64,000 nt of DNA from an uncultured Aliiroseovarius sp. (lineage in GTDB: Bacteria > Pseudomonadota > Alphaproteobacteria > Rhodobacterales > Rhodobacteraceae), in NCBI RefSeq assembly GCF_947497285.1, contig NZ_CANMFT010000004.1, positions 305,595 through 369,594 on the forward strand, in the 5' to 3' direction. The position numbers and the translations under genes are program-made. The notes under the pieces were generated by a model. The model was not told where the DNA came from. It searched no databases and worked only from the letters and a program-made list of their open reading frames with translations. Positions 35,896 through 39,223 of this stretch are shown here, piece by piece; the stretch's first letter is position 1, and each line of letters opens with the position of its first letter.

Positions 35896-36716
35896 TGGAT
35901 GCCCGCCTGACCCCCGCCAACGCCCGGATCGCCCACGAAAGCCTGCGGGGCAAGGTGGACGCCCCGGCCTTCACCGAAGGGCGCTGGCGACGTGTCGGAA
36001 CCAGCGTCGCTGACATTTTACGCAGCCCTTTTGGCGCGCGCAATCGGCAAGCGCTTTTCGGCGAACGTGTGCTGGAGCTGGATGCTTCGGACGGTCATGC
36101 GTTCATCCAGGCAGAGCGCGACGGCTATGTCGGCTATGTCGCGCTGTCCAGCTTGACCGACGATTTCGCGGCCACGCATCGGGTCAACAGCTTGGGAACG
36201 CATTTATACCCTGAGCCGGATTTCAAATGCCGTGAGGCCGACACGCTGTCGCTTGGGGCGCATGTGACCGTTGTCGGAACCTCAGGACGGTTCGCCAGAA
36301 CGGATAGCGACGCGTTCATCCCGATGGTTCACCTAACCCCAATCGGTGAGGTCTGCGACGACATCGTCGCCATTGCCGAACTGTTCTTGGGCACACCCTA
36401 TCTGTGGGGCGGCAATTCACGGGCGGGGATCGACTGTTCGGGTCTTGTCCAGACGGCATTGCTGGCGGGCGGGCATTCGTGCCCCGCAGACAGCGACATG
36501 CAAGTCGCGCTGGGGCATAGCATTCCCGAAAGTTCACCGCTTGAGCGCGGAGATCTTTTGTTCTGGAAAGGTCATGTCGCGATGGTTGTGGACAAGGCCC
36601 GCATGATACACGCCAACGTGCACCATATGGCTGTCGCCTATGAAAATATTGAAGATGCGATCACCCGCATTGCCGCGCAGGGCGACGGGCCGGTGACTGC
36701 ACGAAAACGCCTCTAG
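35895..36716 (+). CDS. NlpC/P60 (C40) peptidase with SH3-like N-terminal domains
   Basis: PYLWGG, GIDCSG and GHV catalytic motifs. Coupled to the aminopeptidase gene. Confidence 0.92.
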   Translation: MDARLTPANARIAHESLRGKVDAPAFTEGRWRRVGTSVADILRSPFGARNRQALFGERVLELDASDGHAFIQAERDGYVGYVALSSLTDDFAATHRVNSLGTHLYPEPDFKCREADTLSLGAHVTVVGTSGRFARTDSDAFIPMVHLTPIGEVCDDIVAIAELFLGTPYLWGGNSRAGIDCSGLVQTALLAGGHSCPADSDMQVALGHSIPESSPLERGDLLFWKGHVAMVVDKARMIHANVHHMAVAYENIEDAITRIAAQGDGPVTARKRL

Positions 36717-36732
36717 CGGTTGCAGGCTGGGG

Positions 36733-37080
36733 TCAGTCCACCGCCCGGATAAGCTTGCGTTCCAAAACCCTGAGCACGGCGCGCAGATCAGCCCCACGTT
36801 TCAATATGCGACCATCCATCCCGATCACCGCATATTGTCCCTGCCGGTTGCGCAGCTTGGGGCGCTTTTCGATCCGATAAAGCGGGTGTTCCGCCGTGCG
36901 CCTGAATACGGAAAAGACGGCCACCTCGTTTAGGAAGCTCATGCCATAGTCGCGCCATTCACCGGCCGCGACCATACGCCCGTAAAGCCCCATAATCGCG
37001 CCAAGCTCGGTGCGGTTGAAAACGACCTGATCGACTGGCTTGCCAGGACCCGAACGCGGCGTCATGTGCTGCATGTTCAT
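36733..37080 (-). CDS. DUF2794 family protein
   Basis: FNRTELGAIMGLYGRMVAAGEWRDY and PLYRIEKRPKL. GAAAGG SD before ATG 37080. Confidence 0.88.
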   Translation of the reverse strand: MNMQHMTPRSGPGKPVDQVVFNRTELGAIMGLYGRMVAAGEWRDYGMSFLNEVAVFSVFRRTAEHPLYRIEKRPKLRNRQGQYAVIGMDGRILKRGADLRAVLRVLERKLIRAVD

Positions 37081-37201
37081 CCTTTCAGAGTGCCGTTCTA
37101 TGATTAACAAATCAATCCCTGCCCAACTTTGGCCGCAAATATTGACACTTGTTTTCACATCCATTCCCTTTTGACGCCGCGTTAGGCAGCGATAGGTGAT
37201 G

Positions 37202-37274
37202 ATGTAGCGAGCGAAAGCTCACCCGGTGCCGCACATAACAGCCCCCACCCAGTTAGCGGCACCGGGGCTACCAT
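37202..37274 (+). ncRNA. Candidate structured small RNA (three-way junction)
   Basis: GTAGC/GCTAC closing stem, GAGC-GAAA-GCTC hairpin, and a perfect 11-bp stem CCCGGTGCCGC/GCGGCACCGGG around a C-rich loop. Strand inferred from the GNRA loop. Confidence 0.55.
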
Positions 37275-37396
37275 TTGGGCCTAACTCACTGAAAAGCAAA
37301 CCAAGCACAGAACGCTGTGCCATCGCCTTTGCACGCCTGATGGACGCGGGCCGCGTGTTTGGCTTGATGTCACGCGAGACCGATCCACAACACTAT

Positions 37397-37410
37397 TGAC
37401 CGAACGGTCA
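37397..37410. promoter_or_regulatory. Palindromic operator TGACCG-AA-CGGTCA overlapping the -35 of the paaI promoter (likely PaaR site)
   Basis: Perfect 6+2+6 palindrome. TTGACC (37396-37401) and CATCCT (37419-37424) are 17 nt apart. Confidence 0.7.
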
Positions 37411-37447
37411 GCTTTATGCATCCTCTTTGCATAGCTCAGGGGGGAAC

Positions 37448-37879
37448 ATGACGCCACAAGACCGTGCAGAACGCGCCGCCCGCGTGATGTGGGACGATGA
37501 CCCGGCCTCGCAGGGATTGGGGATGTCGCTGGACCAGATCGCACCGGGCCGTGCCGAGATGTCGATGACCGTGCGCGACGAGATGTCGAACGGGCATGGT
37601 ATCTGCCACGGCGGATTCATCTTTACCCTCGCAGACAGCGCCTTCGCCTTTGCCTGCAACAGCTACAACACCCGCGTCGTGGCCCAGCACAATTCGATCA
37701 CCTATCTGGCCCCGGCAAAGCTGGGCGAAACACTGGTGGCACAAGCGACCGAGGTCAGTCGCGCCGGGCGATCCGGGATCTATGATGTCGTGGTCACCGG
37801 CACGGACAGGCGTGTCATCGCGCAGTTTCGCGGCCATTCACGCCAAATTTCCGGCACCCATTTTGAAGACGACAGCTGA
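37448..37879 (+). CDS. paaI: Phenylacetyl-CoA thioesterase PaaI (PaaD)
   Basis: NGHGICHGGFIFTLADSAFAFACNS hot-dog motif. Confidence 0.95.
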   Translation: MTPQDRAERAARVMWDDDPASQGLGMSLDQIAPGRAEMSMTVRDEMSNGHGICHGGFIFTLADSAFAFACNSYNTRVVAQHNSITYLAPAKLGETLVAQATEVSRAGRSGIYDVVVTGTDRRVIAQFRGHSRQISGTHFEDDS

Positions 37880-37915
37880 AACGCGACGGGCATGCGCCCC
37901 CGACGGAGGACCAAC

Positions 37916-39223
37916 ATGAAAGACCTGACCCCTCGCAAGCAAGACCTTGACCCGATTGAAATCGCGTCACGCGACGAAATCGCCGCACTTCAGCTGAAGC
38001 GCATGAAATGGTCGCTGAAACATGCCTATGACAACGTGCCGTTCTATCGCAAAAGCTTTGACGACGCGGGCGTGCACCCGGATGATCTGAAATCGCTTTC
38101 GGATCTGGCGAAATTTCCGTTCACGGTGAAGCAAGACCTGCGCGACAACTATCCGTTCGGCCTGTTTGCCGTCCCACGTGGTGAGATTGCGCGCGTTCAC
38201 GCAAGCTCGGGCACGACCGGGCAACCCACCGTGGTCGGCTATACCAAGAACGATCTGGCGATGTGGTCCACGGTTGTGGCGCGCTGCATGCGGGCCTCGG
38301 GTCTGCGGCCCGGTGACGTGCTGCACAACGCCTATGGCTATGGCCTGTTCACCGGTGGTCTGGGCGTGCATGGCGGGGCCGAGGCGTTGGGACTGACCGT
38401 GGTGCCGGTGTCCGGCGGCATGACGCAACGCCAGGTGCGTCTGATCGAAGACTTCCGCGCCGATGGTATCACCGTGACGCCGTCCTACGCGTTGTCCATT
38501 CTGGACGAATACGCCAAGCAAGGTCTGGACCCACGCAAAAGCCCGCTGAAGGTCGGCATTTTCGGCGCCGAGCCATGGACCAACAACATGCGCCGCGAGA
38601 TCGAGGACGCCTTCGACATGCATGCGGTCGACATCTATGGCCTGTCCGAAGTGATCGGGCCGGGCGTCGCCAACGAATGCGTTGAAACCAAGGATGGGCT
38701 GCACATCTGGGAAGACCACTTCTATCCCGAGATCATCAACCCCGACACCGGCGAGGTGGTCGAAGATGGCGAATTGGGCGAGCTGGTCTTCACCTCGCTG
38801 ACCAAGGAAGGCTTCCCGATCATCCGATACCGCACCCGTGACCTGACCCGCCTTTTGCCGGGAACGGCGCGCTCCATGCGGCGGATGGAGAAGATCACCG
38901 GGCGGTCCGATGACATGATCATTCTGCGCGGCGTCAATGTCTTCCCGACCCAGATCGAAGAACAGTTGATGGATGTGCCGGCCCTTAGCCCCCATTTCCA
39001 GATCGAGCTGGTCCGCCCGGGTCGCATGGACGAAATGCATGTTTACGTGGAAATGGCAGACGGCCTGTCGCAAGACGGCGCTGAAGCAGCCGCACGCACC
39101 TTGTCGGCCAAAATCAAATCCAACGTCGGTGTCAGCGCCAAGGTGCATGTCACCGAAGGTGGCAAGGTTGCGCGCAGCGAAGGGAAAGCGGTAAGGGTCG
39201 TCGACAACCGCCCGAAGGAGTAG
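37916..39223 (+). CDS. paaK: Phenylacetate-CoA ligase
   Basis: HASSGTTGQPT, YGYGLFTGGLG, GIFGAEPW and YGLSEVIGPG. GGAGG SD before ATG 37916. Confidence 0.97.
   Translation: MKDLTPRKQDLDPIEIASRDEIAALQLKRMKWSLKHAYDNVPFYRKSFDDAGVHPDDLKSLSDLAKFPFTVKQDLRDNYPFGLFAVPRGEIARVHASSGTTGQPTVVGYTKNDLAMWSTVVARCMRASGLRPGDVLHNAYGYGLFTGGLGVHGGAEALGLTVVPVSGGMTQRQVRLIEDFRADGITVTPSYALSILDEYAKQGLDPRKSPLKVGIFGAEPWTNNMRREIEDAFDMHAVDIYGLSEVIGPGVANECVETKDGLHIWEDHFYPEIINPDTGEVVEDGELGELVFTSLTKEGFPIIRYRTRDLTRLLPGTARSMRRMEKITGRSDDMIILRGVNVFPTQIEEQLMDVPALSPHFQIELVRPGRMDEMHVYVEMADGLSQDGAEAAARTLSAKIKSNVGVSAKVHVTEGGKVARSEGKAVRVVDNRPKE

Follow-up and report, generated by a model that had tools for sequence, protein, structure and literature searches.

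The ChvG/ChvI system (ExoS/ChvI, BvrS/BvrR) controls envelope homeostasis, symbiosis and virulence across the Alphaproteobacteria. To our knowledge, ChvR is the sole characterized sRNA output of ChvG/ChvI, and it is confined to one Caulobacter species. Another Caulobacter sRNA, CC3664 (Rfam family RF01530), reportedly came from the screen of Landt et al. in 2008 and is said to be uncharacterized. ChvR (CCNA_R0100) is a ChvI-dependent, Hfq-independent sRNA of C. crescentus whose hairpin loops pair with the 5' UTR of chvT, an envelope-protein mRNA (PMC6237742). The ChvI consensus of S. meliloti consists of GCC-N8-GCC direct repeats, as cited in PMC9731502. In Caulobacter, the promoter of the sRNA CCNA_R0088 is among the top ChvI ChIP-seq peaks, and CCNA_R0088 and R0092 ('Minimal medium sRNA') stand third and fifth among the ChvI-dependent genes of the supplementary table (PMC9731502); either of them may differ from the RF01530 loci. 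Two further described systems belong to Rhodobacteraceae: the stress sRNAs CcsR1-4, or 'cuckoo' (alpha-r14), which have C-rich hairpin loops and occur as tandem copies, and StsR. StsR (RSs0827) of Rhodobacter sphaeroides is about 72 nt long, conserved in the family and dependent on RpoHI/HII, with the 5' end of UpsM, in the mraZ leader, as its pairing partner (PMC8266604).

Here we analyze a 64,000-nt stretch of DNA (the window) from a member of the Rhodobacteraceae, in which a first-pass annotation had proposed a candidate sRNA with a C-rich loop at 37204-37271. Rfam 15 gave no match at E <= 10 over positions 36500-38000; the SRP RNA elsewhere in the window is detected by the tool. The family models of cuckoo/CcsR, SorY, SorX, AbcR and MmgR were likewise silent at E <= 10, in keeping with the annotation's view that the sequence is none of alpha-r14/cuckoo, AbcR and MmgR. 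StsR and UpsM are absent from Rfam, so that the blank in Rfam alone is weak evidence of novelty. StsR, which is induced by stress, was a serious candidate for this RNA by its size, its conservation across the Rhodobacteraceae and its dependence on RpoHI/HII. That identity was rejected, since the real StsR ortholog lies elsewhere in this genome, outside the window (G000:C2:~395020-395103, plus strand; L174 ~520-605), as a unit of about 78 nt with a CTTGGAA-N-CTTATA promoter, the seed TGCCTGTATGAAACCTG, a GC hairpin and a T8 terminator. An antisense search of the mraZ leader led to this ortholog by a perfect 17-nt match (G000:C2:395045-395061 against G000:C1:~531995-532011). StsR pairs with the UpsM/mraZ leader, whereas the RNA described here has no such complementarity: its duplex with the mraZ leader (-37 kcal/mol) lies at the 5th percentile of the background and is not significant. 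CcsR1-4 differ in their loop motif, CCUCCUCCC, in their position after a DUF1127 gene, from whose 3' UTR they are processed, and in forming two plain hairpins. ChvR offers a model for the action of a ChvI-activated sRNA, but its locus is a different one, beside recF; it is found in C. crescentus alone and is unrelated in sequence to the RNA described here. A full-text literature search for the loop sequence returned no bacterial paper, and the Rhodobacter, Ruegeria and Breaker-lab motif literature reports nothing near ggt or DUF2794.

Fold, strand and conservation of the element

The features of the locus are as follows.

36733-37074, minus strand: DUF2794 gene, the conserved divergent neighbor (Pfam PF10984, E = 5e-40)
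37165-37178, plus strand: TCC-N8-GCC box TCCCTTTTGACGCC, spanning -39 to -26 relative to the predicted start and resembling a ChvI-type direct repeat
37171-37176, plus strand: -35-like hexamer TTGACG, kept in the own genus and followed after 14 nt by the -10-like hexamer
37191-37196, plus strand: -10-like hexamer GATAGG; in nearly all loci this element lies at -13 to -8 from GTAGC
37204-37271, plus strand: conserved core of the sRNA, a three-way junction (covariance model scores of 97 bits with R1 and 85 bits with R2)
37204-37208, plus strand: 5' strand of P1, GTAGC, pairing with GCTAC at 37267-37271 (82-94% of cells pair, 5/5 pairs compensatory)
37209-37220, plus strand: P2 hairpin GAGC-GAAA-GCTC (84% of cells pair, 4/4 pairs covary; loop variable across the family)
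37222-37232, plus strand: 5' strand of P3, CCCGGTGCCGC, pairing with GCGGCACCGGG at 37256-37266 in a perfect 11-bp stem
37236-37239 and 37252-37255, plus strand: extension of P3, TAAC with GTTA
37240-37251, plus strand: 12-nt loop AGCCCCCACCCA
37240-37252, plus strand: near-invariant C-rich apical loop and putative seed, AGCCCCCACCCAG
37256-37271, plus strand: 3' strands of P3 (37256-37266) and P1 (37267-37271)
37344-37366, plus strand: terminator-like hairpin ACGCGGGCCGCGT followed by GTTTGGCTTG, with a 3-nt loop, from a consensus scan; a possible 3' end

A check of the sequence located P1, P2 and P3 exactly where the first-pass annotation had drawn them, and the extension and the loop that it described are present as well. 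The compact three-way junction that it described is both the minimum free energy structure and the centroid in RNAfold (-42.2 kcal/mol, z = -4.24, with none of 200 shuffles as good), and the linkers of the junction measure 0, 1 and 0 nt; the opposite strand of the same region reaches only z = -1.4. The GNRA loop, present here, is largely confined to the own genus and to copies of the DUF2794-adjacent type; in the family as a whole the loop of P2 varies (UGCAUAUG, for example). The element is single-copy in the 3.38-Mb genome, which rules out a dispersed repeat, and a tRNA or tmRNA was ruled out with ARAGORN, which found none. The 5' end is predicted near 37204. The hairpin at 37344-37366 is the only plus-strand terminator-like site found here and is not conserved in relatives, which makes the position of the 3' end uncertain here; if it were the 3' end, the RNA would be about 165 nt long. 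Another terminator-like hairpin, GGCACAGCGTTCTGTGCT followed by TGGTTTGCTT, lies on the minus strand at 37304-37321, between the sRNA and paaI, where no minus-strand gene ends.

By blastn the core is present in 23 of the 24 genomes of the genus, spanning exactly 37204-37271, and in four of the 23 carriers there is an additional copy that has diverged further. A covariance model of eight sequences, R1, recovers all 28 copies of the genus; in their alignment 94.5% of cells pair, 11 of 22 pairs have changed on both sides, and none of 500 shuffles reaches any of these measures. R1 matches in 92 of the 151 genera of Rhodobacteraceae, and with a second model, R2, the RNA turns up in 118 of the 144 family genomes sampled (51 of 64 genera) and in none of six genomes of the sister family; no match to the covariance model was obtained in 149 other alphaproteobacterial families. 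A scan of GTDB representatives for the exact pattern identifies Celeribacter, Roseovarius, Sulfitobacter, Yoonia, Loktanella, Gemmobacter, Rhodovulum and Pseudooceanicola as holders, together with many MAGs of Rhodobacteraceae/Paracoccaceae.

The conservation and covariation that the annotation had named as a check, beside DUF2794 orthologs, were found. Among 104 homologous hits, 100 of them distinct, base pairing holds in 92.7% of cells and both partners have changed in 20 of 22 pairs; none of 500 shuffles reaches any of these measures, and slid controls pair in only 28-48% of cells. In P3, 99.6% of cells are paired and 9 of the 11 pairs covary; about 100 G.U cells in this stem would be A.C mismatches on the opposite strand, and the functional strand is therefore the plus strand of the window. 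P1 shows compensatory replacement (GAAAC/GTTTC in locus L029) and is absent in about one fifth of the family members, and the loop of P2 is variable, so that the universal core consists of P2 plus P3 with its loop. Only the AC/GU part of the TAAC/GTTA extension is conserved. The loop sequence GCCCCCA(C)CC hardly varies, with 13 near-invariant bases across more than 50 genera. As 64 of the 104 sequences were picked by a pattern that fixes the loop, the evidence for this comes from 57 hits obtained independently of the pattern, in all of which GCCCCCA is invariant and in most of which the full AGCCCCCACCCAG is found. About a quarter of the genomes have two copies, some of them in tandem about 200 nt apart. 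Tandem sibling copies, about 180-260 nt apart and each preceded by its own boxes, occur in several genera (L038, L055, L102, L131, L138, G233:C1:503169-503425 and G200:C23:145875-146189).

Genomic settings and independence from downstream genes

Clustering of the flanking ORFs, with Pfam searches on representatives, defined two genomic homes for the RNA. The first, that of the window, consists of an NlpC/P60 gene, DUF2794 on the minus strand, the divergent RNA on the plus strand and then a variable gene, which is paaI-paaK in this genus and some others. The first-pass annotation had placed the element between divergent DUF2794 and paa genes; this is so here, but the partner that recurs across Rhodobacteraceae is DUF2794, not paa. 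The second home consists of a STAS gene, an RsbW-like kinase gene, a spacer of about 125 nt, the RNA, a spacer of about 75-100 nt, and ggt. This genome has the first home only. Its rsbW-ggt spacer (G000:C3:206376-206494, minus strand) lacks the RNA and keeps both a remnant of the upstream block, gaaaattgccgc, and the ggt promoter TTGGCA-N17-TAGGTT, and the loss of the ggt-adjacent copy looks like a clean deletion. The RsbW-like gene is also kept in RNA-less genomes according to its phylogenetic profile. A canonical intrinsic terminator follows many copies within 20-40 nt, mostly in the first home, and in 13 of 36 loci of the second home (0.36 expected) a ggt promoter, TTGRC-N17-20-CTAnnT, separates the RNA from the ggt start codon. 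In this window, just upstream of paaI, we also observed ACACTATTGACCGAACGGTCAGC (37390-37412), with the palindrome TGACCG-AA-CGGTCA, which is conserved in this and other genera and looks like a putative PaaR-type operator overlapping the paa promoter.

Since the downstream genes are variable or have their own promoter, the RNA behaves as an independent sRNA and not as a leader of paa or ggt. The opposite reading makes the RNA a cis-acting leader or riboswitch-like attenuator of whichever operon follows, paaI-paaK in this window and ggt in other loci, with P3 and a U/C-rich tract forming a regulated terminator or a Rho-loading site. It draws on the co-orientation of the RNA with paaI, which starts 155-180 nt further on, and with ggt, 75-100 nt further on, and on the ggt-adjacent copies, in which P3 runs straight into such a tract, mostly with no canonical terminator. 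Against it, the conserved neighbor in the first home is DUF2794, on the other strand, while the downstream gene changes; a full terminator precedes the next gene in many copies; ggt has its own promoter after the RNA; rsbW and ggt remain adjacent where the RNA is missing, in this genome and in another genus; and the conserved bases lie in the apical loop, not in the junction. No constant class of downstream gene within one transcription unit, as a riboswitch or cis leader would have, was found, and we regard this reading as very unlikely. It is more improbable still, to the point of being negligible, that the locus is a protein-binding palindrome or repeat acting as DNA with no RNA made: P3 is indeed an 11-bp inverted repeat, but the element is single-copy in the genome, its roughly 100 G.U cells pair on one strand only, and its shape covaries while its sequence changes. 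The annotation had left the choice between a trans-acting sRNA and a cis element; covariation on one strand, an own promoter region, two homes and terminators speak for the former, and the cis half is disfavored. That the element is an independent small RNA gene on the plus strand, belonging to an uncatalogued sRNA family of Rhodobacteraceae, is thus well supported.

Upstream region and probable relationship to CC3664

Both TTGAC hexamers that the annotation had named, at 37142 and 37171, are present, and the second sits inside the conserved NCC-N8-GCC box. This box is found at the same position in all loci of the own genus; the window has the proximal box only, in a partly degenerate form (TCC for GCC). 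In the family, GCC-N8-GCC occurs in 35 of 91 upstream regions, compared with 3.0 in shuffles and with 4-9 loci for each of the other spacings from N5 to N12, and the GCC boxes stand at fixed positions, -60/-49 and -38/-27. They are followed by a -10-like (C/G)ATA(C/A) at -13 to -8 and by a start at GUAGC; CATATC, CATACA and GATACA are variants of the -10-like element in relatives. A scan for the sigma-70 consensus found no promoter upstream of the sRNA here, and sigma-54 and ECF-type readings of the upstream blocks were rejected because their spacings did not fit. The resemblance of the boxes to ChvI repeats suggests that the sRNA is probably switched on by the ChvG/ChvI envelope-stress system, possibly as a member of the ChvGI regulon.

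RF01530, whose gathering score is 60 bits, was searched in one order, in which 9 of 41 genomes matched, almost all of them Caulobacteraceae; the best matches scored 87 and 61 bits. In 7 of the 9 matched genomes the RNA and DUF2794 diverge, about 200 nt apart. The Caulobacteraceae RNAs begin with 5' GUCGG and form a hairpin of about 30 bp with the loop CUGAACAGCCCCCCCAGCCCCCCUGG, followed by a terminator with a C-rich loop; the apical loop of RF01530 members is CUGAACAGCCCCCCCAGCCCCCC, and gaaatgaCC-N8-GTC-N8-GCC-N11-GATATT-N6 stands upstream of their genes. The RNA described here shares with CC3664 its position divergent from DUF2794, with the same orientation and comparable spacing, within about 100-250 nt (gene at 36733-37074 on the minus strand, RNA from 37204 on the plus strand), an apical loop with AACAGCCCCC, a layout of phased boxes ending at about -25 (NCC-N8-GNC-N8-GCC in CC3664) with a -10-like element at -13 to -8 (GATATT in CC3664), and, at the level of the family, the existence of second and tandem copies. 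CC3664 differs in being about 136 nt long, with one hairpin of about 30 bp and a longer loop with two C runs, whereas here a three-way junction of about 70 nt presents a single C-run loop, UAACAGCCCCCACCCAG, in which the second run is shorter than in RF01530 members, on a stem of 11-15 bp inside the junction. Furthermore, CC3664 ends in a 3' terminator with a second C-rich loop, while the sole plus-strand terminator-like site here has a loop of 3 nt, and the ggt-adjacent paralog is specific to Rhodobacteraceae.

By score the RNA is not a member of RF01530, whose true members reach 61-87 bits, as positions 36500-38000 gave nothing at E <= 10; conversely, our family model gave no significant detection of the Caulobacteraceae RNAs (about 10 bits, E = 2-4). 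Since neither model significantly detects the RNAs of the other, homology rests on position, orientation, promoter layout and loop motif, from which we consider homology with CC3664 probable, and the sRNA would most likely be a divergent branch of CC3664-type sRNAs. At the DUF2794 loci of other alphaproteobacterial families, the divergent side carries a long hairpin in at least six families, with the apical loop CAGCCCCCCAGCCCC(C/A)CC and, in one family with two tandem copies, GUAGCCCCCAAGCCC; similar hairpins together with boxes stand beside DUF2794 in at least five families besides Caulobacteraceae and Rhodobacteraceae. One such locus in another alphaproteobacterial family (L203, G347:C1) has a tandem pair of hairpin RNAs next to DUF2794; their loop is GUAGCCCCCAAGCCCA, and GCC-N8-G(G/T)C-N8-GCC and CGTTGTTGGCC precede each of them.

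Proposed mode of action

The best explanation of the locus as a whole, which we hold with moderate confidence, is an independent sRNA that is activated by ChvI, acts by pairing through its C-rich loop and is the positional counterpart of CC3664. Transcription would start at about 37204 from a promoter made of the -10-like GATAGG and the NCC-N8-GCC box over the -35 region. Binding of the OmpR-family regulator ChvI to this box would place the RNA in the ChvG/ChvI response to envelope and acid stress. The RNA would then fold into the compact three-way junction, whose long P3 is predicted to display the C-rich loop of 12-13 nt, and the loop may pair in trans with G-rich stretches of target mRNAs, for example in ribosome-binding regions. 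An unpaired, near-invariant C-rich loop on a rigid stem appears seed-like, and the RNAs nearest to it in proposed function are ChvR (PMC6237742) and CcsR; the anti-SD reading of the loop offered by the annotation is unproven. A target search in one genome and in the orthologs of the best site found no conserved target. The exact 14-nt complement of the loop occurs at a single site in this genome, in an EamA-like ORF, which was rejected as a target because the site is broken at third-codon positions in orthologs and only 4 of 26 genomes have the gene. Further high-ranking sites, which either code for GWGL in membrane proteins or are antisense to a tRNA, were also rejected. The 5' regions of DUF2794 and ggt show no excess complementarity, and the loop pairs with them no better than its reversed sequence.

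These results bear on two further alternatives, one concerning the action of the RNA and the other its regulation. The sRNA might bind or titrate a protein that recognizes the invariant C-rich loop, with no base pairing; the near-total invariance of 13 loop bases over more than 50 genera exceeds that of most seeds and would fit such a role, as would the outcome of the target search, but that search covered one genome only, no candidate protein is known, and the related alphaproteobacterial sRNAs with C-rich loops, ChvR (PMC6237742) and CcsR, act by pairing, so that we judge protein binding unlikely. Control by an RpoH-type sigma factor instead of ChvI, as for the Rhodobacter stress sRNAs StsR, SorY and CcsR, we judge a little less likely again: the upstream block of the own genus, TTCCCTTTTGAC-N14-CCATAT/CATATC, resembles both the TTG...CCATGT pattern of RpoHI/HII (PMC8266604) and the promoter of the StsR ortholog of this genome, and the TTGACG-N14-GATAGG of the window could serve such a factor, yet TTG is missing in most family members, which keep the phased GCC boxes, and the Caulobacteraceae RNAs are preceded by the same box layout.

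Beyond the ChvI-activated, pairing sRNA that we favor for this locus, it is conceivable, with rather less than even probability, that a single ancient sRNA lineage of the Alphaproteobacteria, spanning Caulobacteraceae, Rhodobacteraceae and at least five other families, forms a conserved post-transcriptional arm of ChvG/ChvI, in which the invariant GCCCCC loop would recognize a conserved G-rich partner. If an sRNA with boxes of the ChvI type has indeed stayed beside DUF2794 all the way from Caulobacter to the marine Roseobacter group, it would be a candidate conserved riboregulator of ChvG/ChvI, and the questions raised by the family are specific and testable. For annotation, our covariance model marks one or two RNA genes in most genomes of Rhodobacteraceae, all of them unannotated until now and missed by Rfam 15.

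This genome carries chvI-chvG(Sensor_TM1)-hprK at G000:C7:209099-212078. Upstream of chvI (L229 1-110, G000:C7:208900-209010) we observed three repeats, (T)TTGCGCAACC / TTTCGCAACC, which are possibly akin to TTGC-N3-GCAA, a motif that has been proposed for ChvI of Caulobacter.
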